DNA of 61,503 nt, filler included, from Stramenopiles sp. TOSAG23-6 (lineage: Eukaryota), in assembly GCA_900128565.1 (NCBI GenBank). It is 4 parts of 4 records of this genome, joined end to end, with 100 filler letters (N's around TTAATTAATTAA, not from the genome) between each part and the next. Parts side by side here need not be neighbours in the genome. Positions count along the whole stretch, not along the records: positions 1 to 15,330 come from LT636119.1; positions 15,431 to 30,752 come from LT636120.1; positions 30,853 to 46,130 come from LT636121.1; positions 46,231 to 61,503 come from LT636122.1. One strand, 5' to 3'. Below, in pieces: positions 1 through 61,503 of the stretch. The notes beneath the pieces are model-generated. The model was not told the origin of the DNA. It saw only the letters and a program-made list of their open reading frames with translations, and did not search any database. Within the stretch, counting starts at the first letter, position 1. Each line of letters begins with the position of its first letter. A program made the translations under genes and the position numbers.

Positions 1-65
1 TAGGTACAAAATTTCGTACGAAAAAAAAAATCGATTTTTTTGTTAAAAAAAAAAATATCACATAC
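1..65 (-). mobile_element. Family intron (introner-like), 3' end off the contig
   Basis: CAT|GTATGT donor plus core TTTCGTACGAAATTTTGTACCTA. Confidence 0.8.
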
Positions 66-867
66 ATGATCATATCCAACTCTGCAATGTACGTGATATG
101 TTTGAGGAGCAATAACATCTTGAATCACTGCACTTAAAACAGGATCATTTGTATCCGTTTCAGCGACAGTTGTAAAATGAGAAAAATCTGCAGTTACTTT
201 CATTTCTGGAAAGAGTGGGAGAATATCGCGACTTAACCAAGGTGAATGTATTTTGGAAAAATATTTCAAAAAAAATCTAAAATTTTTTGTTAGGTACAAA
301 ATTTCGTACGAAAAAAAAAACAATTAAATTAGAAATTCATATAAAACATACATGAAGATAACGTTTACGATGGTGTTCATGGCAAACATTTGTATATCCT
401 CCCGATGTCCCCGATTTCTCGAATTCGAGAGCTTTTGAAAAAAATTCTGTAGCTTGGTCAAATGTGAAGTAGTCATTTCCTGAATGTGAGTTAATACGAA
501 TTGGATTGAATTCTTGAGCAGCTTCAACCTGTGATTTGAAGACGTCAAGATGTGACTCTACACTAGAATCAGGACGTGGGTGTCCTTTATAAGGTCCACC
601 GCACACGAGACCTAACTCACATCCAGGTGCAACTGGACCATCTGTGAAAATATGGAAATTTATTTTCAAGTCATAGTCTGACAACAATTTTTTGACATTT
701 TCTTTTCCTTCTTGCTCAACTAATTTATATGGAACTTCTATTCCATCATAGCCTAAGTTTGCTACAGCTGCGACTGCCTGCTTTAAAGACTGAAATTTTG
801 AACCTGCAAGTACTCCATCAGTTGTTGGAAGAACGCCCCACATACTTCGAAACATTAAAAGCCTCAT
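66..867 (-). CDS. Sugar phosphate isomerase/epimerase (xylose isomerase-like TIM barrel); exons 867-352, 245-66; continues off the window
   Basis: MRLLMFRSMWG start, GYDGIE, INSHSG and, after removing 246-351, the continuous motif HEHHRKRYLH|SPW...TADFSHF. Confidence 0.8.
246..351 (-). mobile_element. Family intron, GT..AT, 106 nt
   Basis: Removal joins YLH|SPW; CAT repeated at both ends; no in-frame AG nearby. Confidence 0.9.
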
Positions 868-1207
868 TATACGTGATATCAATACTATTAATACTGATTA
901 ATGTGATCGAATTGTTCTCTTCTATTATGATCTATGAGGCACAAATTTTGTAAATATACAAATAAACGGTATTGATAGATGAAGTATAACAAAAAATAAT
1001 AGTATTACAACTATTATTAAATACTCTTCTATTCGGGAATATGATGCAACAAAAAACGCACAAAAAAACAACAAGCAAAGCAAAGCAAAAATTTGATGTT
1101 TTAATTTTTTTGACTCGCGCTGTCGCTGTTTAAATTTGCTGTCAAAAAATCTGTCCAAATCCAGAACTTAGTCAAAGTGTAGTGATACTATAAATAAAAA
1201 CCTTCTG

Positions 1208-8167: not shown

Positions 8168-8199
<32 letters not shown>

Positions 8200-8207
<8 letters not shown>

Positions 8208-8302
8208 TTTTTTTTTTTTTTTTTTGTTAGGTACAAAATTTCGTACGAAAAAAAAAAGTTTTTTTTTTTGAAATTTTTTTTTTTTTTAAATATAAAACAT
8301 AC
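8200..8302 (-). mobile_element. Family intron, 3' end lost in homopolymer runs
   Basis: AG|GTATGT donor plus core. Confidence 0.75.
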
Positions 8303-9193
8303 CTAACTCTATGAAACAAACATTTTCGTTACAATTACTAGTTATAGGATTAGATAAAAATGAATATTTGTACATTGTAGAATTTATTGATTCATGTTGT
8401 CGTATATTATTTCTATTTTTTTTGGATTTTTTTTTGATATTTTTGATATTTTTGATATTTTTGATATTTTTTATTTTTTTGATATTTTTTATTTTTTTGA
8501 TTTTTGTAGTATTATGTTTATGTAGTATAGACGTTTCATTCAGTGTATCTTTGGTGGTATGTAATGTATTGTTAACAATAGAAGTAAACGTTTTATCATT
8601 TTTTACGTTGGTATCACGATTAGGATTTGTAGGGGTAGGGTTAGAATGTATGACCCATTCTGATAACTCAGGAATATATGTATTGTGGAAAAATATTTGA
8701 AATTTTTTTTTTTTTCCGTAAAAAAAAAAAAATTGTTAGGTACATAATTTCCTATGAAAAAATATTTTTAATTTTTTTTGTAAAAAAAAAACTAAAACAT
8801 ACGTTCAACAAAATCAGTTACTCGTTTTATAACAGATTTCAACGCAGACGGAGATATCATTAAAGACTTGATGGCTGTAGTTTGTGGTTGGGATGTTCCA
8901 GCAGTGACAATACCGGCTTTAAAAAGTCGATTTGATTCTTTTTTTGAGTCTTTTTTTGATGATACATTAGTTGTTAATGTACAAATAGATTCATGCTTTC
9001 GAGAACGTAAAGACCAAATATTGACACCGCATTTTTGACACATTATACGTATTCCACGACTTGGTTTGCCATTTAATGGTGAGTGATGAGCTCCAAGAGG
9101 AAGGTGGCGTGTACAAAAAGGGAAAGACTTTGTTGTTTCACAACGTGGAAGTTTACAACGTAAAGCAGTACATTGTTGATGTATGACTGACAT
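8303..9193 (-). CDS. TRM13: TRM13-like tRNA methyltransferase, 5' part only; exons 9193-8803, 8677-8303
   Basis: N-terminal CCCH-like and CHHC-like Zn-finger patterns, then RQHES...CFIELG (SAM motif I) at the next donor; remainder lost in a poly(A)/poly(T) tract. Confidence 0.6.
8678..8802 (-). mobile_element. Family intron, GT..AT, 125 nt
   Basis: Removal opens a 375-nt stop-free exon ending in FIELG. Confidence 0.85.
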
Positions 9194-11906: not shown

Positions 11907-13599
11907 TTATGCAGCTTCTTCCATTATTTCTGCATCAACAACTAATCGTGATGTATTTTCAGCTCCATATATTTTGGAAAAATATTTCAAAAAAAAAATC
12001 AAAAAAAAAATTGTTAGGTACAAAATTTCGTACGAAAAAAAAATAAATTCGAAATTCGATTTTTTTGTAAAAAAAAAAAAATAAAACGTTCATATATCTC
12101 AGCATAACGTTTTTGTTGACGAAGTGCTAACCAATGATTAATATCCCAAATAGATGCCAATGGTTTTTGATCAAGACCACAAGGTTGATAATTTGGAGGT
12201 CCATGCTCAGGTTGCATTGTGACAAATTCATCCCCTCTCTCATCTGCGGCTGCCCAACACATATATTTTGGAAAAATATTTCCAAAAAAATCTAAAAAAA
12301 AATTGTTAGGTACAACATTTCGTACGAAAAAAAAAATTCATACAAAACTTTTTTTTTTTTTTTTTAAAACATACATATCCCACCAACGTTCAAATCCCTT
12401 TGTATATGGCAGCCATTGTTCAATTCGTGGATCAGATACTTGAGGTCCATGTATTTTGGAAAAATATTTCAAATGTTTTTTTGTTAGGTACAAAATTTCG
12501 TACGAAAAAAAAAATATTTCAAAAAAATATTTCAAAAAAAAATTCTAAAAAATTTGTTAGGTACAAAATTTACTATAAAAAATAAATTCGATTTTTTTTT
12601 TTTTACCGGGAAAAAAAATAAAAAAAATAAAACATACATTTAGTAATCGACAATTTGCTTCAGCTTTTGATTTTTCAACAGCTTTTTTTGATAAACTTAA
12701 TAAATCTATTTTTTTTGTTTTTTTCCGTCTTGATTTTTTTTGCTTTGATGAATTTGATGAATTTGATGAATTACTTACTGAGTTATTTGTAGAACTAGAA
12801 GATAAAGTATCACTAGAAGAAGATCTAGATGATGACGATAAAGTGTCTGAAATCACTGAACTAGGGTTAGGGTTATCTGAAATGGTTGAATCAGCATCTT
12901 CATTTTCTAAATGTAATGAAGTATCTATCAAATTTTTTTGTCCTAAAATTTTCATTGCTTTATCAGTGATAATATAAGACCATTGTTTTAAATGTAGTTC
13001 ATCCGCTTCAAGTAATTCAGAAGGAATATCAGAAAACCCCCGAATATTGTGAAAAATATTTCAAATTTTTTTAAAAATGTTTGTTAGGTACAAAATTATC
13101 TACGAAAAAAAAAAAAAAAAAATTTCAAAAAAATTTCAAAAAAAAAATGTAAAAAAATAAAAATAAATCCTAACCCTAATGAGAACTCACCTGTACCTGT
13201 TCTTTTTTTATATTCCTTCATCACATCAAAAATACCACCAGGGGGATTTTTTTTCCTTTTATCTTGTTTTTTTGTTTCTATTTCAGTACTGTCTATTTCT
13301 GGTTCCTTTTGTTTTTTTATGTTTTTGCGTTTTTTATGTTTTTTATGTTTTTTATGGGCATTCTCATCAGATGTGTTATCGACGTCACTTTCTGAAGTTG
13401 TCGAATACTCACTATAACTATTATCACTATTTGTACAATATTCTGGATGTGTTGATGAGTCTTTAGATAATGCCAGTGATTCTTTTGAATCTTTTGTGTC
13501 ACTTTTAATAGGTTCCTTGTGTTTCGTTTGCTCTGCATCTTTTTCATTATTGTTGTTGTCATAGATTTGACTCTTTATTCTTTTTTGATTGTATTCCAT
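11907..13599 (-). CDS. Hypothetical protein, 5 exons (13599-13191, 13041-12638, 12448-12375, 12260-12092, 11966-11907)
   Basis: Four family introns; exon lengths and phases give one continuous frame ending IYGAENTSRLVDAEIMEEAA*. Confidence 0.75.
11967..12091 (-). mobile_element. Family intron, GA..AT, 125 nt
   Basis: Donor position reads GAACGT; ATATATG direct repeat across both junctions. Confidence 0.75.
12261..12374 (-). mobile_element. Family intron, GT..AT, 114 nt
   Basis: WWDM|CWAA; ATATGT direct repeat. Confidence 0.85.
12449..12637 (-). mobile_element. Family intron with two tandem cores, GT..AT, 189 nt
   Basis: Two GTACCTAAC cores; RLLN|GPQV. Confidence 0.8.
13042..13190 (-). mobile_element. 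Family intron, CAG|GTGAGT..TC, 149 nt
   Basis: Strong U1-type donor, core, CACAATATTC end; restores the frame. Confidence 0.75.
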
Positions 13600-14341: not shown

Positions 14342-15330
14342 TAAAATCGAATGCGGAAGAAAGTCGTTACGTTACTTTGTATGGTACGTATACGGTTAAG
14401 TACTCTCCCAGTCATCTCAACACTTCATACACAATGTATCACAAATAAATCTACTTAAATATATCTATGCTTGAAAATATCATATTTAAAAGAATCGATA
14501 ATACTATATGGAAATTCTTCAACAAACAAACAATGTTTTTCTTGAACAAAATAATTATTGAAAACGATAGAATCTTTTATTTTTATAAAGCCAAATAAAA
14601 GCGTTTAAAACTAGTTTTGAACATTTTCTGAAAAAACATGGTACGCTACATCACAATCCGTACAACACTAGCTAGAGAGATCATATATATCGACAAATAA
14701 TTTATCCAATTAATTCGTTTCGACGTTTCGTTGTAGCAGAATTATTCAAGAATTGCTTGTGCTTTTTCTGTTTGCTCTTTCAATGCCGTTGTTACTCGTT
14801 GTGCTTCAGCAATTGTTTTTTTCAAGTCATCATTAGCGATTGTTTTTTCCAAATCATCTTTTTCTGTTTGGTTTGTTTGAGCTGTCTTTGAAACTGTTTT
14901 TTTTGACCAAGGGAACATACTCCGGAGATTTGTTAATTTCGCTTTCACATAATCTTTTACTTTCGTAACTTTTTTGGTTACAGCATTTCTCACTGTTGTA
15001 ACTTTGTTAGCTACAGCTTTAAAAAATTTCTTCGCGTTGCTCTTTTCGTGACAAAGCCTGATGGTCTTTCGTATGTCGAATCACCCGTATTGATCTTCTT
15101 TAGGTTTTTGCATTGCTTCTTCAGTTCTTCATCATTATGAGCAGCATGGACGTATCTGCCTGACTCTTTCATAAACCGCTTTTCAGAAAAATCCAATTGA
15201 TTTGTCGGTGTCGTTGCCCAAGGGGTGCCCCGTATGACATATAGAAGATTATCCAAACATTCAACAATACTGAAAGGTTTTTTTGAATTAAATGAAATGC
15301 CTAAAAAAGTAGCTATTGTTGGTGCTGGAT

Positions 15331-15430
15331 NNNNNNNNNNNNNNNNNNNNNNNNNNNNNNNNNNNNNNNNNNNNTTAATTAATTAANNNNNNNNNNNNNN
15401 NNNNNNNNNNNNNNNNNNNNNNNNNNNNNN
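15331..15430. other. Artificial contig spacer
   Basis: N-run with the six-frame-stop linker TTAATTAATTAA. Confidence 0.95.
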
Positions 15431-15449
15431 GTTTCCGATCATATTTTTT

Positions 15450-18400
15450 ATGTCTAAAGTCCCCGACCACCAATGCACTCACATAAAGAGTTGCCCGGTT
15501 GGCGAAGAATTGCAGAAATGTACTCCTGCATCTGATACCACATGCATACCTTGCAAAGAGAATATGGTAAAGCTTTCTACAGGACTTGGTAAATGTAAAC
15601 CATGTGCCCCTAAACTAGAATGCAAAGGAATGAATATGAGTTTCAAAAAGTGTACAAACTCAACTGAAGGATTTTGTTCGCCATGTACATATGAATTAGG
15701 ATCGTGTCTTGCTGGAACTATTCCAACAAAGTGTAATACATGTGAACCGTGCCCGGAGAATACGTTTGCCATAAGAGGTAGCAATTACTGTGAGAAATGT
15801 ACTCCTTCATCACGTGTGAAATGCCTCGCCGGAGAGGTAAAAGTAAAGTGCAGTAAAACACAAGACACGCATTGCACCGCATGTCCAGAAGGCAAGTATA
15901 TTGAAGAAGACAGTAAGATTGGCGCCAAGTGTAAAGAATGTGTGAAACCGCGCCCTTGTGGAATTGCCTCAACATTCCATAAATGCTTTGGTGGATACTC
16001 TGGTGGTTGTCAATCGTGTACAAATGAAATCAAAGAACCCACATATATTACTAAAATAGAAGGTAAATATCAATGTAGGAGATGCACACAGCAAAATTGC
16101 AAAGTAGGATTCGAATTTGAAGCTTGTTCAGCTCACAGTGATTCGAAATGCAAGAGGTGTCCAAAAGGCACATGGTCGAATGGCAACATTTCTAAATGCG
16201 AAGCGTGTAAGACACCATTATGTAAGAGAGGTCATGGTCCAATTGCATGTACTGCTGAAAGAAATACAGTATGTAGTATTTGTGAGAAAGGAAAGTTTTC
16301 CGATGGTACAAGCGCGTGTCAGGAGTGTACTCATCCGTTGTGCCAAGCTGGTTATCATGTTGTACCATGTACCACAACTCATGATTCATCTTGTCGGAAG
16401 AAAGCGTGTGGTCGAAGCGCGCATATGTACTATAAAAGTTCTATTGATGAAGACGTGGTGAACTCTGTTTTGATGTATCCATTGGATGTTTTCCCTCCTA
16501 ATCACCCGCTTGTCAATGGTGATATGACATGTTCTCAAATGTTTAAACCACTTACAAACTTACCAATACTTGCAAAATCGAGACGAAATTGTGTGAAAGA
16601 CCTCAACGCCATGGAATTATTAATTGCAGATGGCTGGCCTCTTCAGAACTCAAAATTTGCATTGAAAGCGAATTCCAATTGGATGTTTTGGAACCAAGAT
16701 TTAGATGAACAAAATTACTTTGTGTTTGGTTTAACACCTGGAGAATCAATGACTGTAAATATTTCAATTGATGCGTCAGAATCATTGGAGGATGGCGAAT
16801 TTCTTAAAGCCGAGTATTTCAATAGTGAAATATACCCAAACATTAAGCCTAAGTTTGAATGGAACAAGTGTTCAGTTAAAAAGGTGAAAAGCCACGAAAA
16901 CTGTTTTGCATGGAACGCATCAACTGGTAAGGGAACGATGCAATGGTATTTAGAAAAGCCAAATAATATTGAGGTAAGCGCTCTGATAATTGGACCATTT
17001 CCTGATCGAAGGTCCTGCTTCAAAATTAATTACTCTCTTGGTACACTCAACAACTTATCCACGTATAAATTCATGGAGTGGGATTCCATTAGCGCAGTGT
17101 TAAAACCGAAAGAATTCAGCTATCAAGCAGTTCAGAATGGTATTAAAATATGCCTTGATAAGAAGGATTGTCCTGATTTTCATCACTATACTTCAGATAC
17201 TGTCAACACAATCACGAAAACTAAAAGTGGATACAAATGGAGTTCGCAGTTTTCCCTGTGGCTCCCTGCAGTACGTAAAAAGGAACATTTTAATCGCAAG
17301 CTTGCTGCTGATGAGACTGATGATGAGGTTGCAGGCGTTGATGATCTCAACTCCAAAGATGTACTCGTGCTTACAAAGAGCATTTCAAATATACTCCAAG
17401 AAGTTTCCGACTATGCCTCAAGTCAGACAGACATGCATATTGTTGGAATTTCCCGTTCGGTGGTACAAACTACCGAGAATCTAACTTTATACGAGATTAA
17501 GTACAGTGTAAGTATGCCGGGTAATAAATATAAAGAAGTAACTTCTTCCTTTGCGGGGCTCATACAGACAGGTAGATTTCAAACTGAATTAAAGAAACAA
17601 GGTCATGAAGCAGGTATTTCTACGTTTTCACTTCTGAACGCTGATGAAATATGCTGTCTTCATATTTTAGATGGAACGCGAAAAATTTCATCGGCACATT
17701 TATACGAGGGGAAGCCACGATGGAAAGGCATCTCGTCAAGCCTTTCGTGGAAGACATCGCCGAATGAATGCAATTTACTCAGTGGATATTGTGATGTTCA
17801 TTTTGAATTGACAAATACATATATGGAATGTGCTTGGGATGATCCTGAATGTGGGGCATTACCAAAATGTTGCCACGATAAGACAAATCCGAGTTTATGT
17901 GAAAAGGAAGACCCAAGAACGGGTGTTACAAACCCAATTTGTGGGGAAGGAAATTTTGCTCTCCCAGGTAATTTTGACTTTGGTGATGGATCACCCCCTA
18001 AAGATCTCAGTAAAAAAGATAGCCCGCGGGGTGTATTCAAATATTATGATGCAGAGATGGGTTATACAACATTTACAACAAAATTGAAGCATACGTATTC
18101 CGTTACAGAAAATATTGGGGAAACAACTTTTGAGGCCACATTCATTGATACTCGCGGACGATTAATTTCTTGTGGGTCGAATTTGAAATCTAGTGAAATA
18201 TGCACTAGGTCAAGTGGAGGAAGTCAATTTGGTTCATGGACTAAAGTTCGTATTCGAAAAGCACAGCAACTATCCAAGGAAGGTATTCATTATCCAGACG
18301 ACTTCTCTTCTCCAATTTCCAATATATCACCAATCATTTCAGTGTTTATTGGGGATGAACAATTAATACCAATTTCTGCATTTGATTCTTCAAGTTCGGG

Positions 18401-30852: not shown

Positions 30853-30906
30853 GTACGAAAATTTGTACCTAACGATTTTTTTTTGAAATATTTTTCCGAA
30901 ATACAT
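30853..30906 (+). mobile_element. Family intron, 3' half at contig start, ends AT
   Basis: Core plus CCGAAATACAT. Confidence 0.8.
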
Positions 30907-36469: not shown

Positions 36470-37042
36470 GGTTAGGGTTATACAGTCCATGGAAGAACAA
36501 ATAATACAGGGTTCGTGAGAGAGCAACAAGACTAGGAAGTCGTCCCCCCTATACCGACCACTTTTGATTTTGTACGAAAATCCGTACCTAAGCAAAAATT
36601 CGCCAAAAAATCATGTTTCCTATTCCGACCACCCTTAGGTACGGATTTCTCTATATCTTTTACTTCATATGAAATAGTGTATTCAACCTTGTGAAACTAC
36701 ATGATATTACTCACTGGGATACTAGTGCGCATGATAAATTGGAATACAATGTCTTAAAAGGCATTTATGCATTTCATTTTATGTTGTTTAGGATGATAAT
36801 TACTCTTGCTGACTAAATATTTTGAAGGACTTTGCTAGAAATATTGTCAGAAAGTGCCAAAATATATAAGAACTTTTTTTTTTTTGATCGATATTTTACC
36901 GATCTGCGCATTAGGTACAAAATTTCGTACCAAAAAAAAGTGGTCGGTATAGGATTCGGTCGGAATAGTAAACACAACTTCCTACTCAGTGCCAGAGGTA
37001 TTGTTGGTTAGGGTTAGGGTTATACAGTCCATGGAAGAACAA
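36401..37042 (+). repeat. ~100-bp tandem duplication of the RRP41 3' end; second copy carries a 5-nt deletion and the MITE
   Basis: 36401-36500 is repeated as 36498-36534 plus 36983-37042. Confidence 0.9.
36535..36982. mobile_element. Non-autonomous DNA transposon (MITE), 448 bp, TA target duplication
   Basis: TA|GGAAGTCGT...ACAACTTCC|TA; subterminal inverted repeats CCTATACCGACCACTTTT...GTACGAAA..GTACCTAA; empty site AAGAC-TA-CTCAG at 36436-36447. Confidence 0.9.
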
Positions 37043-43029: not shown

Positions 43030-46000
43030 ATGATAAAAGGCATATATCTGCAAAGAATAGATGGTTCTGAAATATACTTACCTCATATCCACCACAGTCC
43101 TGGAGATCTGGTCAAGAAACTCAAAGTAAACTTGATTAAGCTAGGACACGCACATGCAGGACACACTCAACTTACTTTTGGACGAAAATCTCTTGAAGAT
43201 GACAAAACACTTGGATTTTATGGTTTACAATCTGGTAGTGTCATTGCAGTAGAATCCACACATACATCATCACATTTGGATGTGTGTATCCATTCTAAAT
43301 CGTATGAATTAACCAGACTCAAAAAAGAATGTAACAATTTACGACAAAAGATTGACGATATGTCACTCCTATATGACTCCCAGTTAAAGCAAAAGAATGA
43401 AAATGTAAAGTCTTTTTCTGAACGCCATAAAGAAATACAAATAACAAAAATATGCACGCGCACGATATTTAGAAAATCCGTTGATAACTTTGCGTATGGG
43501 TTAAATATAAAAAATACAACAAAAGAAAATAACAAATATAAAACTGTAACTGTATACAACGGAAATCTTGTAAATGAGTTTTATATGTACAAAACTTTAG
43601 ATAAAAAGTCACAAGATGAACGTTCATACCACAGTAAAACATTTGATGAAATAGGTAAAGAGGCGATTTTATTTTGGGATCTTCTTTGTGACCGTGTCTA
43701 TTTTTATCAAACTAAAGATACAAACGATAAAGAGAATTCGAAAAAAAATTCAATTTGGCCTTCTCAGGCTCTTCTATCAGAGGCTTTTCAATATAACCAG
43801 AAGAAGCTTATTCTTAGACTATATGATCCATCCAAGTATAAAATAAGAGAAAGTAAAAGTTCCGAGAGAATAAACTATCAAAACTATAATAGATCAAATA
43901 AAACCCAAAAGAAAAATACTTCCGACAACATCAATATATTAAAAATTGCAGATAATTTTAATAAAGAAAATGCAAGCCTTGGATTACTTTTAGCAAATGA
44001 TGAGAATGAAAACGTCGTTAAAAGCAGTACAAATGCGTTAAATGGTAATACTAATAATTTGAAAACTAAAGAAACAAACAATGATGATGTACGTTTGATA
44101 TGAATTTCTAATTTAAGTTTTTTTTCATACGAAATTTCGTACCTAACGATTTTTTTAACTATTTTTTTTTTTTCACAATACATGTCCATAGTGAAATTGA
44201 AATGGCTCAAAAAAGCTTTACTCGACAGAAACGTCGTCGTATTAGAGTTGGACTCTGTACAATGACAACTGCTTTTATTTTTGTGATTATTTTACTCTGG
44301 AATGACGTATGTTTTATTTTTTTTTTAATGAATTTTTTTTTGTACGAAATTTTGTACCTAACAATTTTTTTTAGATTTTTTTTTGAAATATTTTTCCAAA
44401 ATACATGGACATAACATTTCTAGTTCTTCTGGGGTAAATAATGATTTTATCAATAAGCTTAAAAGTAAAAGTATTGACATTGATTATACAAAGGAAAAGG
44501 AAGAAATTTGGGAATGGATAGATAACAGTAAAACTATCGAGAATGGAAATTTAGTCACTTTTGACAACGAAAATTATAAAAAATGGACTTTATTTGGTCC
44601 TGTGTCATATACACAACATAGAGGTCAAGGTTTACTTAGTTGTATTACTGAAAAGGCTTTTGATGCTACAGAGAACCCTAATTGTCGATTATGTTCAGTG
44701 TACTGCCAATCAGAATTTGGAACGAATCAGTCGGTAAGTATGTTTTTTTTTTTCAAATTCGATTTTTTTTCATACGAAATTACGTACCTAACGATTTTTT
44801 TTTGAAATATTTTTCCAAAATACAACGTCTTTTGGTGCTTGGTGGTTAACACCTTTTACATTTGGAGGAAAGAAGACTTTGTCATTAGAACAAGAAACTA
44901 TTGGTATTATCGCAGACTATGGTTCAAAAGGCTTTCGTAGATCATCTTTTCCTGGGCAACTGCCTTTAGAAAAAGTGTATCATGATTCAGTATGGGAACA
45001 AATGAAGGTAGATTGGCTTGATGAGTACACCCGAGCAATATTTATTACTGCTTCTACATATCATCCAGCTCTCAATTTGTTAACAAAAATACAATCTGGT
45101 ATTGAAATGTCTGTGGGTGGAAATTCAGTATCAAACTTAAGTATTGATTCAGTTTTTTTAGATGATAGAAGTTCAAAAATCAAAATTATTTCATTTCTTC
45201 TTTTACCCATTGTAGCTATTTCACTAATCATGTATGTTTTATTTTTTTTCAAATTTGATTTTTTTTCGTACGAAATTTTGTACCTAACGATTTTTTTTTC
45301 AAATATTTTTCACTGCTCATAGATGTGATGCACTTGTTAGAAATCATTGGCTTACGATATCGTTACGTTTCGTCATATTTTTGGAATACGGCAATATGGC
45401 ACAACTTTGCAATTTATATCTTTATTTCGGTCTATGTATTTCATGAATTAAAAATCGATTCAGATCTTAAAATTCTTCAAGGAGATTGTGTTAAAATTCT
45501 TCTTAGACAAAATTACTTCAATGAAATTCTTAATGACCAAGAAAAGATCATTTACAATGAAATTCTGACAGAAAATGGACCTAAAACAACCTTGAATACA
45601 AGTATTTGGTCCCAAAAAGCACAATTAAAATGGGAAATTTGGTGGAACGAATCTAGAATAAAGGATTTTGATACGAATCTGCAAATGACTATTAACTCGT
45701 ATGAAAGGACTATCTCAGAACATAAACTAAATATGAATAATAATCTTACAGGAATTTCTGTAGCAAGACAAGTACAAGTACTTTTACTATCAATTTCATT
45801 CTATTTGATATTTATGAAATTGTACAGATTTCTCTTTAGAAGAAAAATATTGAAAAAAACAAATATTGAAAAATCAAAGTCGAAAAATGATTTCAACCGC
45901 GATATTTCAATGTATTTTATAATCGTACCGATACTATTTATATTACTACTAGTTGTACTCGCCGTATCTTTTATTTTGTGGATTGATATCAATGGACATA

Positions 46001-46080: not shown

Positions 46081-46130
46081 GTATGTTTTATTTTTTTTTC
46101 AATTTCGAATTTATTTTTCGTACGAAATTT
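46081..46130 (+). mobile_element. Family intron, 5' half at contig end
   Basis: AT|GTATGT plus TTTCGTACGAAATTT. Confidence 0.8.
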
Positions 46131-46230
46131 NNNNNNNNNNNNNNNNNNNNNNNNNNNNNNNNNNNNNNNNNNNNTTAATTAATTAANNNNNNNNNNNNNN
46201 NNNNNNNNNNNNNNNNNNNNNNNNNNNNNN
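46131..46230. other. Artificial contig spacer
   Basis: N-run with TTAATTAATTAA. Confidence 0.95.
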
Positions 46231-49200: not shown

Positions 49201-52200
49201 GTGGATGCAAAGTCTCGAGTGTAGGGAGACTTCCCGAGCTGCTGCTGCATTAGCTAGTATTACCTCTGTATGTAACACGCTGCGATGTGCGGGCTTGAAA
49301 GAAAATATACCTTCAGTAAATGAAAAACCACTTCCAGCATTTTCAAAACTTGGTCATAGAATGGAGTTGTTATTCTCGGAGGATTGGAGCCCAGTATCTT
49401 CTATATATTTTCTAGCTCCTATTTTGGATGCGATACTTTCACTAGTTGTATCAAATGGAGTTTGTATTTCTTTTTCTTCTCGAGGTGTAGATTCAAATGA
49501 ACTTTTAGTTAATAAAGTTGGGAATGTTTGGACCCCCTCCTTTCCTAGTAAGGTATTGAAAACATCAGCCAATGATCCTATCAGTGTGAGAAGTAGAAGA
49601 AACTGTCAATCAATTATTTCTAAAAATGAAGAGTATATACGCCGAGCTTCGGATTTTTCGATGGAATATTTGTTAATGCCTCTTCGAAACCTTATGTATG
49701 GGTCAAATGAATTAGCTCATGTTGTGTGTTCAGTTTTGTTACCAAATGTCTGGAGAGTATTCCCAACACCAATTCGTGTTGCCATGTTATCTCCAATCTC
49801 GCGTTTTCTCACTGATGTCTGTCATTCAAGTCAACCTCTTGGCCAGCGAAATGTTATTCAATCTGTTTTGGAAGGTTTGTATGTTTTATTTTTTTTCAAA
49901 TTCGAAGTTTTTTTTTCGTACGAAAGTTTGTACCTAACGATTTTTTTTTCAAATATTTTTCCAAAATACTTGTTACATGCGCCGTTTCCAATGTGTATTC
50001 CGACAGAAGTTCTTTCACACGTTGCTCATGAACACCAGTGTTGGTACATTGCAATAACATTGATTGAACGTAAACTTTCTCGCACAAAAATTTCTGCTGA
50101 ACGTGACATGTATGTTTTATTTTTTTTCAAATTCCATTTTTTTTTCATAGGAAATTTTGTACCTAACAATTTGTTTTTGAAATATTTTTCCAAAATACAT
50201 GTGCCGTGATGCTCTGGAGAAGATATATACTTCTCTAAATATGGATGATGTTGCTTTGGGCTTACGTAGGCGTTTTTGTCAGATTCCCGATTCTCTGCTA
50301 GCTCTTACATTAGAGACATATGGCTATTGGGATGATGCGCAAGATTCATACTATCGAACGATCCGTCAGCTTCATTCAGGTCAAATTCCTCACAATATCG
50401 TGGATCCATTTGAACTTCGTCTTTGGGAAGAACGATGGGTGGAATGTTCGAAACAATTAGGACATTGGGAAATGCTCAGTACGTTAGCTACTGTTACATG
50501 TGATACACAGTTACAATTGGATTGTGCTGAGAAGCTAGCGGATTGGAATGTTGTAAAGTCTATTTGTGGTGGTGGCCGAAATTCGATGCTACTCTCCGAG
50601 GATGGTGGTGGTGTTCATGCACCTCTTTATAGTAAATTGGCCCTAGAAGGTTGGGATGTGAAATATACTGCACGTAATTTGATAACGAGTATTTATGCTA
50701 CTTTACATACTAGTGATGGATGTGCCAATGAATTACGAAGTCTTCATCATGCGAGAAATCTTCTACTCGAAGACTGGCAGAAACTCCCGACTGTTGTATC
50801 TAATACCCATGTCCCGCTTCTGCAACAATGTCATATGTTAGTGGAATGTGATGAATCGATGAATATCATTTCAAAGGTGTCATTAGCTCAGCACACGGAT
50901 GAAGTTCCAGATCTCAAGAATATCTTATCCACTTGGCGCGAGAGACTTCCTAATAAATGGGAGAGAGTTTCAATATGGGACGATTTATTAACGTTTCGTA
51001 GTCATACATTCACATCAATAATGAAAAACTTTTATTATGAAGACGCCCTTCGTGCTCGATTACAAGATGCGCCATGGACGGTGATCAAACTTGCCCAGGT
51101 TGCTCGACGTCAAGGTCTTTGTAATATGGCGCTTCATGTATTAGGTAAATTATTTAGAGTTTCTACAATGGATGTTCAAGATGCCTTCGAAAAATTGCGG
51201 GAACAAATTCTTATATGCTACAATGCAGCAGGTTGCGAGGACTCCAATCGAAGTACTGATCTTGATATCGCTACTGCGGGATTAAATACTATTAATAGTA
51301 CAAATCTTGAGTGGTTTTCGGCCAATCAAAAGTCTGAATTATTTCGCTTAAAAGGTTTGTTTCTTTCTGCACTTGGTGACAATGATCAAGCAAATATTCA
51401 GTTTTCGCGTGCCATGCAGATTGACAATAAACACAGCAAATGTTGGTTGTCTTGGGGTCGTTATTTAGATAGTGTATATAAAAAATCAAAAGGCGACAAG
51501 AATATTAATGTAGCAGCACAAGCTGTATGTTGTTATTTACAAGCTGTAAATCACAAGACTGAAGGTGCCCGACTTGTCTTAGCACGTGTATTGTGGTTAA
51601 TGAGTAATGACGATGAGAAAGGTACAATAAAAGGTACATTTCAAAAATATGGAGATAGAATGCCTCTATGGATCTGGATTATTTGGATTCCGCAATTATT
51701 AACAGCTCTTGTTCGCCCAGAGGCTCCGAAAGTTCGCTCAATTATGCTTCATTTGGCAACTGTTTATCCACAATCTTTGTATTATACTCTCCGTGCATTT
51801 TTACTAGAAAAAAGAGAAATTCCTAAAGATAAAAATGATGAAAAAGAAAAGAAGGAATCTATTGACGCCAAACCTAAAGATGGGAAGGAATCGTCTAGCG
51901 CACAGCTGAAGCCTATGGACATTGATTCTAAAGATGAGAAAAATGCACCAACGAAGTCAAGCCCTTCAGAAAAACCTACTCGTATCGACTCTGTGAAATA
52001 TGCGGAAGAGCTTGTGGCATACATTCGAAGAGCACATCCTGCTCTTGCTTCTGAAATCGAAAGAATGCTTGAAGAATTAATTGTACGCTTTAAGCCATCT
52101 CCAGAAGAAGAACTGGAAAGTGCCGTACATGCTCTTCTCGCTAAATGCTTTCAATTACCTCACTCAGCTGACAACAAGAGTATTCCCGTGTCTTTGTGTA

Positions 52201-53939
52201 CGACGTTGAAGCGTGTATGTCGAAAGTTCTTTGCTGAATCAACGAGTATAAAGAGCCCTAAACATCGACGTTTTGTCATGGCGTATAAAGAACCTTTTGA
52301 AATGGATTTACTACCGATACTTAACGATGTTGAATCTCCTGAGAAATTATCTCCCGGCGAACAGAGAAAAAACCCGGAATTTCCATCAACTTTAGAAGGT
52401 GTTATTAATAACCTCAGACGCTGGAAAATATTTCTTCGCTGCCGTGTGCGTGAATTGCCTTCAGTCGTACGGATGCATAGTAGTAGTAGATATCTCGCAG
52501 AGTTTTGTTCCCATTTGATTGAAGTACCTGGTCAATATATCGAAGAAAGAGAACCGAAACCGAAATTACATGTGAAAGCCCATCGATTTGAACAAGATGT
52601 ACATGTGTTGCATCGTCATGGTTTTTCACAACGTCGAATTGGTATTCTCGGTTCTAATGGGAAAAAATATTACTTTTTAGTTCAATTTGCTATCCCTCAT
52701 ATCACGCGAACCGACGAGCGAATGGTGCAGCTTCGTGTATTTTTCAATCGCCTTTTGAATAAGCATGAAGAAACTAGACGCCGCAGCCTCACATTCCATT
52801 CGGATGCAGTAGTTCCTATAACCCCTAGAGTTCGTCTAGTTCGCGACTATACATCTTCCACTTCACTCGAGAATATAGTAGCACAATCTTTGGCTACTCG
52901 ATCTCGTGCGAAGGAATTAAATTTGTGTATGCATGATACAAATAGCAATGATTATACTATAGAAAACGAGTTTGTTGATGCAGATGAACCTATTATGGAG
53001 TTTAGGAAAATTCAAAGGATGCTATTAGATAGCGAGGCTAATAAGAGTGACTCTTCTAACTCTTCCAAAGAAACATCACAAAGCAAACATAAGTTGCGTG
53101 CTTTTCGCCAAATATGTAAAAAAATGCCACCTGATATTCTTCAGAGATTTTTAGCACGATCAACAAAAACTGTTGATGAGTTATTTTCATTACGACATAC
53201 TATGGCTAAACAACTCGGTTTAAGCTCCTTCTTGTGTAATGTTTTATCAATAGGTGACCGGGTACCTCATCGCTTTGGTTTGTCACTAGCAACAGGAACT
53301 ATAATTACTTCCGAATTTCGACCAAACTACAATCATAATGGATTATTAGATACGAGGGAAGCAGTACCTTTCAGACTGACGCGAAATCTTCAAGTTGCAT
53401 TGGGTGATTTTTTAATTGATGGTGTGATGAGTTCAGCCATCGCTACTACAGCAATGTGCTTGGAGTCGCGTAAGGAGTTGGTGGATGATTACTTACAGCT
53501 TTTTATGCGAGATGATTTATTATCTTGGCATGCGTCCAAGACCCCCCCGAGAAGTGAAAAGGCTGAACGCGCAATGCAGTCTCATCTTCAGGAACGAGTT
53601 GAACGAAACGTTCAATCATGTCTTGCAAATATTTCTCGTCTTGTCCCGAATCACAAACCAATGCCTCGAAGTTTATTGCGAACAGATGATGCTCTTGCTG
53701 CATCAGTTGCTGCTGTTCGACAGGCTCGGTTTGCTTTAGAGAAGAAGAGAAATGGAGCTGAATCTTTTCATAGCAGCTGTAATTCTGCAATTGGTGGCGG
53801 TGTAGGTGGTGCATTTGGAGCTTGTTCCACTGCTACTGCAAGCAAGGCAATAGATAGAAATGTATTTGCATTAATTGCTGCAGCTACAAATGAAGATAAT
53901 TTGTGTCAAATGCCTGCAACCTGGCAGCCTTGGTTGTAG
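46231..53939 (+). CDS. TRRAP: TRRAP/Tra1 (PIKK pseudokinase), 5'-truncated; exons 46231-49878, 49972-50109, 50201-53939
   Basis: WTRKIVQDEGH, FAT-domain motifs (TWRERLPNKWE, WIPQLL, YPQSLYY), EAVPFRLTRN, FATC end LCQMPATWQPWL. Confidence 0.95.
49879..49971 (+). mobile_element. Family intron, GT..TT, 93 nt (3n, stop-free)
   Basis: TTGT direct repeat; removal gives VLEGL|LHAPFP. Confidence 0.85.
50110..50200 (+). mobile_element. Family intron, GT..AT, 91 nt
   Basis: ACATGT direct repeat; ERDM|CRDALE; removal required to keep the TRRAP frame. Confidence 0.9.
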
Positions 53940-55583: not shown

Positions 55584-57480
55584 ATGTCGCATCTGTCGGG
55601 AAAAGGTCGTCGACGGAGAAACACCCGTGATAATAATTTTCTCTTTTCCATCGAGAAGAGATTACACAGACTGTCATTGAAGAATAAAATTGATCTCAGT
55701 ACATCGCAAAAGAAAGTGAATATTGAAGACCATTCTCTTTCGAAGGAAGATCAAAATATTCGTTTGCCTGACGTCAAAGTTTGTGGTGAAATTATTCGAC
55801 TAATTTGTATTTTGAAACGCTTTGCTTTGAAAAACATAACTTGCCACGATAATGTCCGTAAACCCAACAGCCAAGAAAACTCAACCGACACTTCATACGA
55901 TATCGATACTATAGAATACCCCCCAATGATTGATTTTATGAAAGGCCTGATGAATTTTCAACAATCTGCATCCAACGCAAATTTATCTTTTGAAGGTTTA
56001 ACTTGTCAATATCTCAAGAAATTGAATTTATCTTGGTCAGATTTAATGAACGATTTGGAAGACTCTAGGACTGAGAAATTTATAACATATATTTTATCAT
56101 TGAGCCAAGAAAATACCAATGAATTAATTGATCGTGCTGTTTACGAAGTTATTGATGTTTTGTACGTCTTTCCACATACATTTTAATTTTTTTTTTTGTT
56201 AGAAAATTTGTACCTAACAATTTTTTATTGTTTTTGAAATGTTTTTCACAATTTGCGGGCGCCAACATTAAAAATGCGATAAATTCTTCAAATTTCGAGA
56301 GTGAGAAAACAAATAAGGTCATTGATACGTGTTCAACTTCAAGGTTGAGGGAGAAATTTTCTACAGAAAATTTAACTGTGTACGTTTTCAAAATTGAATT
56401 TTTATCTTTTTTTTTCATACGAAATTTTGTACCTAACGAAAAATAAATCAAATTTTTGAAATAGTTTTTTCAATACATGAGCGGTCTGTACAAGTATAGT
56501 AAAAAACATGCTAGTGGAAGTGTAACAAGATTACTTGGTTTCAAAAGTATCGGATTGTTCAAGTATGCAGGTAACATGTATGTTTGTCATCATACATTTA
56601 AAATTTCAAATTTATTTTTTTTCATACGAAATTTTGTACCTAAACAAAAATTTGTTTTTTTAAAGTATCTACGTTTTCATCATTCATTTCAAATTTCAAA
56701 TTTTATTTTTTTGTACAAAAAATTATGTACCCAACGTTTTTTTTAGATGATGTTTATCATTATACACTTAAAGTTTAAAATTTATTTTATGTACCTATTC
56801 CTACAATTTCTACATTTTCAAGTTTTGTTAGGGTTAGGGTTAACCCTAACCTAGCCCTAACCCTACATTTTCAAGTTTTGTACTATCCCTAATAAGTTTC
56901 AAACTTTTAATATATTTGTTCAAAGTCCAGAATATGGAACTATAGAACTCATTGTATTGAGCATACTCAAGGTAGTAAAGTTAAATGGACAATCGGTAAA
57001 ACAACTTCGGTGATAGATGTTGAATTTGGTGATCGCAGCATTGGAAAAATCATCATTCTAGGTGGATTAGTGCCATGTATGTTTTTTTTTTTTTTTACAA
57101 AAAAATCAAATTTATTTTTCGTACGAAATTTTGTACCTAACCATTTTTATTTTTTTGAAATATTTTTCCAAAATACATGTATGGTACTTTCTGCTATTGA
57201 AACACACCCAGGTCCAGATACTAGAAATGGAATTCAGTTAGATTTTAGAGTCTTGAGTGATTTAGAAATAATGTCTTTAGAGAAGAACTCTCAGATGAGT
57301 ACAAAAAAAAAAGCCAGTATTTTGAAAAGTTTAAAGAGAATTCAAGTAGTGGACCGGGTTCGTTTCCATTTCTTTTTGAGTAGAGATAAAAAGGGCATAC
57401 ATTTACTGGGAAACAGGCTCTCAGATGATCATAATATTACTAGTGAAGATGCATTATCAGAATTATTCATCCGCAAATAA
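55584..57480 (+). CDS. Hypothetical protein, 5 exons (55584-56161, ~56257-56379, 56479-56577, 56931-57076, 57179-57480)
   Basis: Four family introns with consistent phases. Confidence 0.65.
56162..56256 (+). mobile_element. Family intron, GT..GC (or GT..TT ending 56253)
   Basis: Core present; both acceptors in frame, neither AG. Confidence 0.7.
56380..56478 (+). mobile_element. Family intron, GT..AT, 99 nt
   Basis: NLTV|SGLYK. Confidence 0.8.
56578..56930 (+). mobile_element. Compound family intron, GT..AG, 353 nt, with several decayed cores and an inverted telomeric tract
   Basis: AGNI|IWNYRT; core variants at ~56625, ~56713 and ~56790. Confidence 0.65.
57077..57178 (+). mobile_element. 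Family intron, GT..AT, 102 nt (3n, stop-free)
   Basis: CATGTATG 8-nt direct repeat; LVPC|MVLS. Confidence 0.85.
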
Positions 57481-57606: not shown

Positions 57607-60061
57607 TTATAGCAAGGATTGTTCCTCATATTTTAGCATTTCACTATCGTACTCCAAAGCTATCACGTCTAATTCATGTTGAGACATTTGATAATATCCC
57701 TTAAAATAAGGATGTCTTTTTATATCACGCACAGTTGGAATATAATCAATAAATTCATTATTGATAAGTGTTGGATGCTTCGTTTCGCTTTCTTTGCAAT
57801 TAATAAAATTTTCAGAGAAGTCACATGCACTGAGCATGTATTATGAAAACATATTTCAAAAATTTGAAATTTGTTAGGTACGGTATTTGATATAAATAAA
57901 TTTGATATAAATAAATTTGAAACAATAAATTTGAAACAATAAATTTGAAACAATAAATTTGAAATTCAATATGTAAACGTACATAGATCCAAGACTACTA
58001 GATACCTTTGCATTCTCTATATTCACTACTACTTTTTTTTTCCACTCTGTTGCACTATCAGCAAATGAATCCATTTCTTTTTCATCTTTTGTTTCAATCT
58101 GGTCATTTATTCTAGAGTCTTCTTCATATTTCATCATCTCAACTTCATTTGCTCCTGTATTAGCCCATTGGCTCATGAACTTCATACGCCGAGATGCTTC
58201 GACTTCTTTTCTCTGCTTCTTTATTCGTGCTAAGTACTCATATCGCCAACGTGGCATAAAAGAAATCTCAATGTCAACTATTCCAGTATTCGTCGCTTGG
58301 AAAATGGGCGATACACCTTCACATGACCAGGCCCCGGATGAAGGATATATAGGGCATTGTTGAATACTTCCTGGTTGTATTTTTTCACCACCATTATCAT
58401 CCTGGTCATGGCATTGCATGACCCAAACCCACTCACCTACCTTGCGTGGAACGTTATTCAACGGTTTTGATTTTTGCATATGCTCATTGATATATTTGTC
58501 TACTGAATGTGGTGTTAAGTCAAGTCGGAAAAAATCACCTTTATGAAATGTTATACCTGAAAGAAGCATTTCCAATGATATAGCACAACTCTGAGGCCTT
58601 GCCCAATTTCCTAAACCTAATAAATCCCTTAGTATCCCTCCAAGATCTGCAGCTAGTTTCTGATTTCGGCGTTGTAAGACATGTACTGCCTCATTCCGAT
58701 TATGAACGTCGGAGATTCCGACACCAGATCCAGCGACGAGATTTTCACCCCAAGGCATATTTGCTAGTTGAACACATTTTCCACTGTCAGATACTACTAT
58801 ATTATCCAGCGTTAATGACCCATTTAACTGAAAAGTGCTATACCTCTCAATATCAGAAAGTGAATTAGTTATCTCAGAGGCCCAGTAACGAAATAATATA
58901 CTTTTTTCAGTCATTGACCTTTCAAATTTATCGTTTTCATCCGCGTAATTTATGCGTTGTAAAACATCAACCATTGAAGACATTGTACTGTTACTATATA
59001 CTAAAACTCGTGAAGATTTAGCAATATTATAATAATTTCCCATACATTTGCTTACGTGGCGTGACATGAACCATGAAAAAATATTTCAAAACTTTAAAAT
59101 TTGTTAATTACAAAATTTGGTATAAAAATATATGAAATTTGAAATGAATGATTATAACGTACATTATCATTTGTCTATTTGCAGCCCATGTTCTTTCTAT
59201 CGCATTTCTTATTGGAGTAGGAACTCCTGCATTAGGTAATACTACACAAAAAAATCCATTTTTAAAATTATTTCCTCCGTCATTTTCTCGTTGTACTTCG
59301 TTGTTTTCAAGTGTCCTACTTTTATTCTTAGATTCTCTGGGTTTAACCACACACACACGTACACCAAATTGATTCATACTACCACATGATAAACCTACTT
59401 TATCGCAGAATACATTTGTAGATTTGTTCATAACTCGTGAAAGAACATTACGCGATATGGAGTTTTGATAACGATATATTGTAGATTCGATTATGTTGGC
59501 ATGATTTCTTTGGTACTCAAATGAGCTTATTGAAATATCAGGATCGATCACTAAAGCATTCCAAAAAAGTAGTTGAAGAGCAGCTTGTGAATTTTGAAGG
59601 TAGTAATTAACTGTTGCAGTATTCAATGTGGCACTTGTAGTTTGTAGTGACAGTCGTAAATCCTCAATTGTTTGAATGGCTTGAAGTGCACTATTTCGCC
59701 CAAATGAAACTGGCTTTAATTTTTGATTTCTACAGTATTTGTATAATTCAATAGGGAGTTTTCTTATGTTTCTCTTCAACTGTAGTGCCGTTTCATCTTC
59801 TTCGAGTAAATTCTGAACAAGTTTGATTTGAAATGTAGTTACATCTAAACCAACTGTAGAATGTGCTTTTTCTTTCTGACCGAAGGCTCCAGAGTTTTTT
59901 TCATGTTCTTTCCAAATACGTTCTAATAAGGGCAGATCATTCTGAGTAATCAAGCCGCGATCTGTTCCATCTTGTAATAGCGATTCCCATTGTGTACTGC
60001 TAGTGATACAGCCATCAGGAGACACCCGCAGAAACATCTGTTTGTATTCGTCGCCATTCAT
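57607..60061 (-). CDS. Hypothetical protein with a degenerate protein-kinase-like C-terminal region; exons 60061-59163, 59065-57983, 57835-57607
   Basis: LTLDNIVV...VQLANMPWG and PTVRDIKRHPYF resemble kinase C-lobe motifs without HRD/DFG. Confidence 0.6.
57836..57982 (-). mobile_element. Family intron, GT..AT, 147 nt, with an internal 14-15-bp tandem repeat
   Basis: LGSM|LSAC; AATAAATTTGA(A/T)A repeated ~5 times. Confidence 0.8.
59066..59162 (-). mobile_element. Divergent family intron, GT..AT, 97 nt
   Basis: QMIM|SRHV; core variant TATACCAAATTTTGTAATTAAC. Confidence 0.8.
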
Positions 60062-60396
60062 CTCTCACGCAAATGTTGAATAAATGTTTGAGAGCTTATT
60101 CTTGAGGAAATAATTTGAACTTGGTTTTGAATGAATCAAGTATTACGTTGGCAGGTCTACGTCTTTTAAAATGGTAAAAAAATACGTAGTATATACTATA
60201 CACTACACAATATGGATACTTTTCTGTTTGACGTTGTTTGTTTCGGTTTGTTTCCGTTATTTCGAACACGAACGACACGAAATCGAGCGCAAAAAATAAT
60301 CTAAATCGGCGTTGGGTATCATATAATAAATACATCATTTGTTTTACACAATTACACACACATGACCAAATATAATATATTTTCGTACTGGTGAAA

Positions 60397-61503
60397 ATGC
60401 CGAAAATACTGTTACGATTGATACTTCTTCTTCTACTTTTTGGTAACTCTTCTTCGAGATTAAAAGAAGATGTTTGCCGAGGCTTAGCTCTTAGCGGTGG
60501 AGGTGCGAAAGGTGCTTACGAAGCAGGTGTGTTACTAGGCCTAACTTCATTGTTACCAGTAAATGAAACAAAATGGGACGTTGTTACTGGGATTTCAGCT
60601 GGTTCCTTGCTCACGTCGTTTATGGCAAAGTACCCCATTGGCAAAGAAGCAGAATGTGCAAAAGCTATGGTACAATTAACCTCAACAATGGATCGAAGCA
60701 CGATTTTTCAAAATTGGTGGCCATTTGGTCCTCTTCAAGGACTACTTGTTGAACGTGGCTTGTACGACACTGCACCTGAACGTGAGTTCCTCAATGGCGA
60801 GATAGGGAGTGGAATTATACCACCTTCTCTGGGAGGACGTAGAATAGTTATTGGAGCAACGTCTGATACTTCTGGCATTCTTCAAACTTGGAATGAAACT
60901 GCCACAACTTCTGAGTTGATTGAGGGAGTCATGGCTAGTAGCGCAATTCCTGGAGTCTTTCCAGCACAAGAAATAACAAATGGTCCTCACAAGGGTGATT
61001 TTTTTTCAGATGGTGGTGTTTTATATGGTGTAAACATTGTTGATGCAATTTTACGATGTCGAGAAATTGTGGGTGATGAAGCTGATAAGTCTATCACTAT
61101 GTACGTTTTCATCCTTCATTTCATTTCAATTTTTTTTTACTATGAAAATTTGTACCTAACAAAAACATTAATATTTTTTCACAAAACATTGATATTATCT
61201 TGACTGACGGTGCGTTTCTATTTAATTTGCCTAACAAACAAGCTGAGAAATTGCACTCAATAGGAGTACTTTTAAGATCATTTGATATAATGCGATATAG
61301 CAATTCAATGGAAGATGTACATTTTCATCATTGATTTCAATTCGTTTTTTTTTCATACGAAATTTTGTAATTAACAAAAAAAACTCAAAAAAAATATTTT
61401 TCACAAAATATGTAGATTATGCTCGTTTTGCTTATCCAAACGTGAACTTCAGGTATTTGATATACCCGTCGGTCCCTCTAAAAGGGCCTTTAGATTTCGA
61501 TCC
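60397..61503 (+). CDS. Secreted patatin-like phospholipase, 3'-truncated; exons 60397-61100, 61190-61316, 61412-end
   Basis: LALSGGGAKGAYEAG, GISAG, ASSAIPGVFP, DGG motifs; signal peptide. Confidence 0.9.
61101..61189 (+). mobile_element. Family intron, GT..AT, 89 nt
   Basis: KSITI|DIILT. Confidence 0.85.
61317..61411 (+). mobile_element. Family intron, GT..AT, 95 nt
   Basis: SMED|VDYARFAYPNVNFRY; the AG 4 nt downstream leads to a stop; ATGTA direct repeat. Confidence 0.85.

Follow-up and report, generated by a model that had tools for sequence, protein, structure and literature searches.

The stretch of DNA analysed here, a 61,503-nt window from the assembly of Stramenopiles sp. TOSAG23-6 (GCA_900128565.1) in which blocks of N at 15331–15430, 30753–30852 and 46131–46230 separate four contigs, carries a family of short intron-like elements whose definable members almost all begin with GT and never end in AG. 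We consider it likely that these elements constitute one introner-like family, probably derived from a DNA transposon, whose members would be cut from pre-mRNA, most likely by the major spliceosome, at a 3′ splice site set by position and not by AG. Transposon-derived introns are established, and the 3′ AG is among the most constant signals in eukaryotic gene expression. The case is built on features that can be read from the sequence itself, namely copy number, orientation, excision boundaries (by frame and by homology), the absence of AG and a 2-nt repeat at the boundaries.

Allowing up to three mismatches, the 21-nt core of the family (GTACGAAATTTTGTACCTAAC) has 30 matches in the window, compared with a mean of 0.01 in shuffled sequence and no shuffle out of 100 that reached 30. 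An nhmmer profile built from 22 copies returned 43 matches at E ≤ 1, including weak matches and opposite-strand echoes of the palindromic core, which were then inspected. The outcome is 33 intron-like copies in 61 kb, distributed over all four contigs: 27 with both ends definable (88–149 nt), three that are composite or degenerate and three that are cut by a contig end. All 33 lie in sense orientation relative to the flanking reading frames, and all introns that could be defined in the window are members of the family; the core matches at 36560–36597 and 36911–36941 are the arms of a separate 447-bp element (discussed below) and are not introns. Two sub-types can be recognized, GTATGT...CCAAAATAC and GTACGT...CACAATAC, and the pairwise identity of 22 aligned copies over aligned columns has a median of 0.74 (range 0.57–0.93). 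A preliminary description of this DNA had reported 30 complete and 4 partial copies, near-identical, present on every contig and always sense to the host coding sequence; our count fits that figure, the core and profile searches bear out the distribution and the orientation holds without exception, while “near-identical” overstates the resemblance given the identities just cited. One further copy lies outside the window in an independent record (L002), where it is sense, frame-restoring and has AT on both sides; it was the only genuine copy among three matches in a core-motif scan of metagenome contigs. The corresponding scan of prokaryote genome contigs gave two matches, both due to chance, and viral contigs yielded no match to the core motif and none to a 3′ motif.

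Among the 27 defined copies, the 5′ dinucleotide is GT in 26 and GA in one, and the donor hexamer is GTATGT in 13, GTACGT in seven and some other sequence in seven, such that GTAYGT accounts for 20/27. The 3′ dinucleotide is AT in 20 copies, TT in two and AC, AA, TC, GC or CT in one each, with AG in none; A occupies position −2 in 22/27 and the last base is free. The first base of the following exon is G in 20/27, and AT forms the last two bases of the preceding exon in 17/27. That the 3′ ends are non-AG and dominated by AT had been proposed from the outset and stands, with two amendments: the end formerly listed as CG is read here as GC (56162–56256), and the single AG end is not among the 27, the copy in question probably being the degenerate one at 8169–8302 (minus strand), in which A/T runs replace the 3′ half and a possible TTTTTAG acceptor is a candidate only. 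The stated absence of the U12 donor RTATCCTT is likewise confirmed, with C at +5 in 0/27 copies.

Within the elements, a palindromic core (GTACGAAATTTTGTAC) runs into a branch-like motif (TACCTAAC), ahead of which lies an imperfect 16-nt palindrome able to fold into a 5–6 bp hairpin. A GTACCTAAC-like core with a candidate branch motif is found in 26/27 copies, 30–58 nt from the 3′ end, and a U-rich tract (ATTTTTYC) ends 9–10 nt before the 3′ end of the intron. Given so variable a spacing between the branch-like A and the 3′ end, the position of the 3′ site tracks the 3′ motif, not a set distance from the branch. A consensus fold of 19 copies has an energy of −0.56 kcal/mol and contains the small core hairpin only, lacking both a terminal helix and compensatory pairs. 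When six copies were folded singly, the z-scores ranged from −2.2 to +0.5, and two of the six minimum-energy folds contained a terminal helix. A terminal helix acting as a ruler, which we considered as a candidate, is unsupported by both the consensus and the single folds.

A single rule set the boundaries of all 27 defined copies: each begins at the family GT and stops 2 nt beyond the AATAC-type motif. Excision on this basis brings the long frames on either side together in 27/27 copies, where chance would do so in about one third of cases per copy; in this test the donor was picked by hand for 30374–30479 and 13042–13190, and the exon after 27675–27765 is short. The claim that exon lengths and phases fit once the copies are removed is thus upheld. 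Alignment of the spliced proteins to homologues, which had been put forward as a check, fixes eight junctions in three conserved genes to the codon and without gaps. Four of these belong to a xylose-isomerase-like TIM-barrel gene on the minus strand of contig 1. The copy at 246–351 (GT..AT) joins frames of 182 and 81 aa, and its junction, YLH|SPW, was aligned with ten homologues and is gap-free against all ten; the other three were compared with the C-terminal sequences of five homologues. These are YDH|GPQ, at which the exon ending in ..GYDH meets a donor (GTATGTGA) in the 5′ part of an intron cut by the contig end (1–65) and the homologues go on with GPQV, encoded from 12448 downward; WWD[M]CW, at 12261–12374 (GT..AT), which is consistent with the homologue C-termini; and AEIY|GAENTSRL, which homology demands at 11967–12091 (..AT). 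In the patatin-like phospholipase gene, the junctions of 61101–61189 and 61317–61411 (both plus strand, GT..AT, the latter reading SMED|VDYARFAYP) are gap-free against P0013, a protein 70% identical, and 16 other full-length homologues. In the Tra1/TRRAP gene, the junctions of 49879–49971 (plus strand, GT..TT, with TT preceding the GT) and 50110–50200 (plus strand, GT..AT, ERD|MCRDALEK aligned to ERD|TFRDVLEK) are gap-free against P0081, the closest full-length relative at 59% identity. A PDB sequence search with the Tra1 junction region gave no matches, and neither did a search for longer homologues with an exon of the polycystin gene.

Canonical alternatives fail by both frame and homology. 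Near the verified junctions, every in-frame GT/GC-AG alternative removes or adds at least five residues within gap-free stretches, and at 45232–45320 and 61101–61189 there are no in-frame GT/GC-AG pairs at all. The copy at 45232–45320 (plus strand, GT..CTCAT, with a degenerate 3′ motif) joins frames of 146 and 269 aa; an AG lies 2 nt downstream of its CTCAT and is out of frame, such that the family position alone keeps the 269-aa downstream frame. An AG 8–12 nt past the branch-like motif is bypassed in five copies, including the verified 246–351 and 12261–12374, and two further copies contain an unused AG 26–27 nt past that motif. Together, frame and homology support the view that removal of the elements would have to be exact, with the family GT as one limit and the second nucleotide beyond the AATAC-type motif as the other.

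An existing database gene model from the same organism (P0075) bears on the same junctions. This model matches the Tra1 gene of the window (50202–53936) at 99% identity, starts at an ATG made up of the last AT of intron 50110–50200 and the G of the next exon, and does not contain six in-frame segments of 8–50 residues that are open frame in the window; these six deletions look like spurious canonical introns. The start position and the deletions indicate that existing annotation mishandles genes with these introns, as had been predicted for standard gene predictors.

The last two bases of the preceding exon are identical to the last two bases of the intron in 17/27 copies (permutation p = 0.005). 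Matches other than AT occur at 44738–44825 (AA/AA) and 49879–49971 (TT/TT) and have p = 0.02 on their own. Such a repeat is as expected if a 2-bp target-site duplication had been left behind. Two other forms of duplication were tried and rejected: a TA duplication in another register needs six extra host bases per site and conflicts with the gap-free alignments, and a 3-nt ATG duplication fits no better than one of 2 nt. A second link to mobile DNA is provided by the 447-bp element at 36535–36981 (no strand assigned), which has GGAAGTYGT inverted termini and a TA duplication and sits within an Rrp41-like gene, 30 nt short of its stop codon. A 29-nt module in one arm of the element matches the intron core at 96.6% identity, circumstantial evidence that would tie the intron family to a transposon-like element without proving descent. 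An uninterrupted 100-bp empty-site copy at 36401–36500 adjoins the element, and the empty and filled sites stand in tandem (36401–37042) with perfect direct repeats of 61 and 24 nt; these are probably two alleles, or an assembly or amplification artefact, and the element may be a heterozygous insertion linearised by the assembler. As regards the earlier proposal of a transposon-derived, non-AG intron class, the non-AG ends and exact boundaries hold, and the transposon origin is circumstantial, on the evidence of the 2-nt repeat and the 29-nt module.

From these features we infer removal at the RNA level, the type of spliceosome, the branch point, the ruler mechanism and the transposon origin, and the scheme we favour is as follows. 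Every copy would supply its own signals: a yeast-like donor (GTAYGT), the palindromic core with the branch-like motif, the U-rich tract and a fixed 3′ terminus. Removal would extend from the G of GT through the second base past the AATAC-type motif, the terminal dinucleotide being the second copy of a 2-bp target-site duplication, and the major (U2-type) spliceosome would place the 3′ site by position relative to the internal signals of the element and not by AG identity. More tentatively, and with the odds in our judgement somewhat against so strong a version, the major spliceosome of this lineage may no longer need AG for the second step and may instead measure from the U-rich tract and 3′ motif, accepting A-U or whatever the 2-bp duplication supplies, with the family supplying most of the organism’s introns.

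Several observations weigh against this interpretation. The homology-verified copy at 11967–12091 starts with GAACGT, and no register gives it a GT; in 30374–30479 the G of the family GT is mutated to A. Either GT is not strictly needed or these two copies are defective or error-bearing. The 2-nt repeat fails in 10/27 copies, and only two of the ten copies with a non-AT exon flank match; the repeat may therefore reflect a preference for AT|G targets without duplication. The inverted termini are very short (GTAT/ATAC plus U/A runs), and no autonomous element was seen. At copies with a matching 2-nt repeat, the mRNA is the same whether the cut is GT..AT or, two bases further left, NN..AC. With regard to data quality, the assembly is in fragments, and a permutation of contig 1 via the intron repeat is evident: the TIM-barrel gene is split on this contig (1–897 and 11900–12637, minus strand), with exons 1–2 at 867–66, ending in the half intron at the contig start, and exons 3–5 at 12448–11900, preceded by an unrelated exon and then a composite intron with two cores. 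In that composite (12449–12637, minus strand) the 3′ part lies before TIM-barrel exon 3 and the 5′ part after the unrelated exon, and it is probably an assembly join through the repeat. From this arrangement, contig 1 looks as if it had been circularly permuted or wrongly joined at the intron repeat. The split gene is also compatible with a tandem or circular unit of 12.5 kb.

The ambiguity of register gives rise to a different account, in which the intron runs from the last two “exon” bases (mostly AT) to the C of AATAC and the family consists mostly of AT-AC introns. The AT-AC terminal pair is handled by both spliceosomes, AT precedes the GT in 17/27 copies, by inspection roughly two thirds of copies have C at −3, and the mRNA is the same at 17/27 copies, with all eight homology-verified junctions fitting both registers. 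We nonetheless regard this account as unlikely. The 5′ dinucleotide in the left register varies (AT, GT, AC, AG, TT, AA), whereas two bases inside it GT is present in 26/27, and the conserved GTAYGT would lie 2 nt off the cleavage site; furthermore, T replaces C at −3 in several copies, including the verified 12261–12374, 11967–12091 and 61317–61411. It is because GT is near-constant while the preceding two bases vary, and because several copies (three verified ones included) have T in place of the C of AATAC, that we prefer the GT register. A minor (U12-like) or hybrid spliceosome that tolerates non-AG ends and chooses the 3′ site by distance seems to us quite improbable. The U12 branch consensus, CCTTAAC, is resembled by the CCTAAC of the family, which counts in favour of such a machinery, and the U12 branch generally lies about 10–26 nt from the 3′ site. 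In Physarum, the available part of the source describes non-canonical U12-type introns that include GT-AT (17% of 1,014) and proposes their spread by a TA-duplicating transposon (10.1101/2020.10.12.336362), and GTATGTTTT differs from the Physarum U12 donor GTATCTTT at +5 only. It is at this very position, however, that C is never found in the family; the branch-like A of 26 copies lies 30–58 nt from the 3′ end as opposed to the 9–12 nt given for Physarum in the same partial source (10.1101/2020.10.12.336362), and it is the 3′ motif, not the spacing from CTAAC, that the 3′ position tracks.

The two remaining accounts dispense with the spliceosome or with RNA altogether. Non-spliceosomal removal, in which RNA structure joins the ends as has been proposed for the nonconventional introns of euglenids and some diplonemids or for the hairpin introners of Amoebophrya, would accommodate the non-canonical 3′ ends and the one verified copy without GT, and short GUAU/AUAC pairing is possible, with the terminal helix in two of six minimum-energy folds in keeping with it. 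The consensus fold of 19 copies (−0.56 kcal/mol) contains neither that helix nor compensatory pairs, though, and the single-fold z-scores reach no lower than −2.2; GT in 26/27 copies and a branch-like CTAAC in a conserved core are spliceosomal features, unlike the variable borders of those systems, and the strand-alternating genes of the window are unlike the co-transcribed clusters described for Diplonema. We consider this account very improbable. Scarcely any weight, in our view, attaches to removal at the DNA level, in the manner of the internal eliminated sequences of ciliates, or to no removal at all (dead genes or assembly artefacts). Precise excision with short terminal repeats is typical of DNA elimination too, and a fragmentary assembly with a repeat-mediated misjoin invites suspicion of artefact; however, a sense orientation of 33/33 is not required for DNA excision, the genes use the standard code and have intact frames conserved relative to homologues on both sides of every verified junction, and a further copy is present in the independent record L002, all of which counts against this account.

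The remaining copies of the family conform to the pattern described above to varying degrees. On the minus strand of contig 1, 5664–5764 (GT..AC) joins frames of 162 and 299 aa and 8678–8802 (GT..AT) frames of 143 and 129 aa, and 13042–13190, in which the core and 3′ part are those of the family, the 5′ part is different (GTGAGT) and the end is TC, joins frames of 140 and 160 aa. All four copies on contig 2 are likewise on the minus strand: 27675–27765 (GT..AT) has 199 aa upstream and a short last exon of 31 aa downstream; 28343–28433 (GT..AT) joins frames of 299 and 210 aa; 30374–30479, with its mutated 5′ G (ATATGT), has a GTGTAT 6 nt upstream that also restores the frame, making its 5′ end ambiguous by 6 nt; and 30632–30730 (GT(GTGT)..AT), which also joins frames, adjoins the contig end. 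Contig 3 carries its copies on the plus strand. It opens with the 3′ part of one (30853–30906, ..AT, cut by the contig start) and closes with the 5′ part of another (46081–46130, cut by the contig end). Between these lie 31070–31169 (GT..AT, in a DnaJ-domain gene, with a frame join); 37867–37969 (GTACAT..AT, containing CCCTAA repeats), joining frames of 156 and 109 aa; the degenerate 38493–38617 (GT..CT, its 3′ end set by family position), with 57 aa upstream and 166 aa downstream; 39002–39104 (GT..TT), joining frames of 141 and 78 aa; and, each with a frame join, 44089–44183 (GT..AT, in the gene for a polycystin-domain protein), 44307–44406 (GT..AT) and 44738–44825 (GT..AA, with AA preceding the GT). 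On contig 4, the plus-strand copies at 56380–56478 and 57077–57178 (both GT..AT) join frames, 56162–56256 (plus strand, GT..GC) joins frames of 207 and 62 aa, and 56578–~56933 (plus strand) is a long composite of degenerate copies with a TTAGGG-like palindrome and an uncertain 3′ end. Two further copies on this contig are on the minus strand (both GT..AT): 59066–59162, joining frames of 300 and 396 aa, and 57836–57982, joining frames of 367 and 75 aa. The latter contains internal tandem repeats, with units such as CAAATTTATTGTTT and ATCAAATTTATTTAT, and shows that copies grow by internal duplication.

The window as a whole has a G+C content of ∼35% and contains compact eukaryotic genes on alternating strands, with the standard genetic code in use. 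In addition to the Tra1/TRRAP, patatin-like lipase, polycystin-domain, xylose-isomerase-like TIM-barrel and DnaJ-domain genes, these include genes for alpha-tubulin, an RFC subunit, an Rrp41-like RNase PH and a PP1-type phosphatase; the domain names come from Pfam searches of single exons, which give no junction-level coordinates. Rfam and tRNA searches of the window gave no matches, and no small nuclear RNA genes were found in it. Eight sequencing runs share words with the window (DNA runs at 0.68–0.06 and two seawater metatranscriptomes at 0.07 and 0.06), which is not evidence of expression or habitat. One unbroken open frame of 3,694 codons occupies 15387–26471 (plus strand), with G+C of up to 0.46, above that of the rest of the window. 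At 14742–15382 (minus strand), open frames of 112 and 123 codons overlap on the same strand in different frames with no family element between them, which could reflect a frameshift, a sequencing error or a non-family intron. Short TTAGGG/CCCTAA runs, some of them palindromic, occur at 36464–36482, 37006–37024, 37887–37905, ∼56820–56860 and ∼11900, and also in L002; they sit just past gene ends and within introns 37867–37969 and the composite 56578–56933, and are interstitial, with none at contig ends.

Non-canonical introns of transposon origin occur in several lineages. Huff and colleagues are said to have characterized, in 2016, the introner elements of Micromonas and Aureococcus as DNA-transposon introners. 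The present family resembles those elements in consisting of multi-copy, short, similar, sense-only introns with element-borne splice signals, and in a boundary repeat that, if it is a target-site duplication, supplies part of the splice site; it is unlike them, as they are characterized in the available portion of PMC7789003 (canonical motifs for splicing, and terminal repeats that do not vary in length), in that AG is found in 0/27 copies and the inverted termini are minimal. Non-canonical introns are described in Fritillaria, Amoebophrya, Polarella and euglenids in the accessible sections of a review (PMC11282704). According to the same sections, Fritillaria borealis has introns derived from miniature inverted-repeat transposable elements (MITEs) with AG-AC and AG-AT ends, for which an adapted U2 spliceosome is presumed to be responsible (Henriet et al. 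2019, via PMC11282704). The likeness lies in non-AG 3′ ends and a transposon origin, probable in the present case; in contrast to the 5′ AG and many dinucleotide pairs of Fritillaria borealis, as the excerpted review has it (PMC11282704), GTAYGT is strongly conserved here and only the 3′ end deviates. Amoebophrya is also a marine protist with repeated non-canonical introns and short direct repeats that overlap exon/intron boundaries (PMC7789003, in the portion available). As that portion describes them, however, its introners are hairpins with inverted repeats of 8–20 nt, direct repeats of 3–5 nt and no boundary consensus (PMC7789003), whereas the family here is without a conserved helix and has a 2-nt repeat and a clear GT...AT consensus.

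The U12-type introns of Physarum share GT-AT termini and a proposed source in a TA-duplicating transposon; GT-AT is a small minority there, with a donor of RTATCYTT and a branch at 9–12 nt (10.1101/2020.10.12.336362, in its available part), while most copies in the present family are GT-AT, none has C at +5 and the branch-like A is 30–58 nt away. The nonconventional introns of euglenids and of hemistasiid and uncultured diplonemids are similar in their non-canonical borders, short boundary repeats and suspected MITE origin, and differ in lacking a U1-complementary donor and in relying on strong pairing between their ends, neither of which was found in the present family (PMC6221363 and PMC12621601, as far as the accessible text of each extends). 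We considered an origin of the window in an uncultured diplonemid, since non-canonical introns are reported from such genomes, and discounted it for reasons that are weak, namely the alternating strands of the genes, the GT of the introns and the lack of pairing between intron ends; a PDB ranking for alpha-tubulin, a protein atlas, a cluster look-up and protein headers pointed to no taxon. Literature searches, which covered material other than supplements, found no family that unites a conserved GTAYGT donor, a CTAAC motif and a dominant AT acceptor, and the word “splice” occurs zero times in the main texts of two marine stramenopile single-cell papers. In a recent survey of introners, 3′ ends were expected to be AG or AC, and families with unfamiliar sites were dropped, according to the available part of its text, unless they were confirmed by transcripts (PMC12130899); a family such as the GT-AT introns described here would therefore be missed.

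At the sites of these introns, gene models from this organism and from related ones are probably cut short or distorted, P0075 being an example. If the stronger version of our interpretation is correct, each insertion of the element would become a clean intron at once. A family such as this would offer a natural system for studying how the second catalytic step chooses its site, given an ordinary-looking donor and branch combined with a non-AG acceptor, and how a transposon becomes an intron without carrying or creating an AG.

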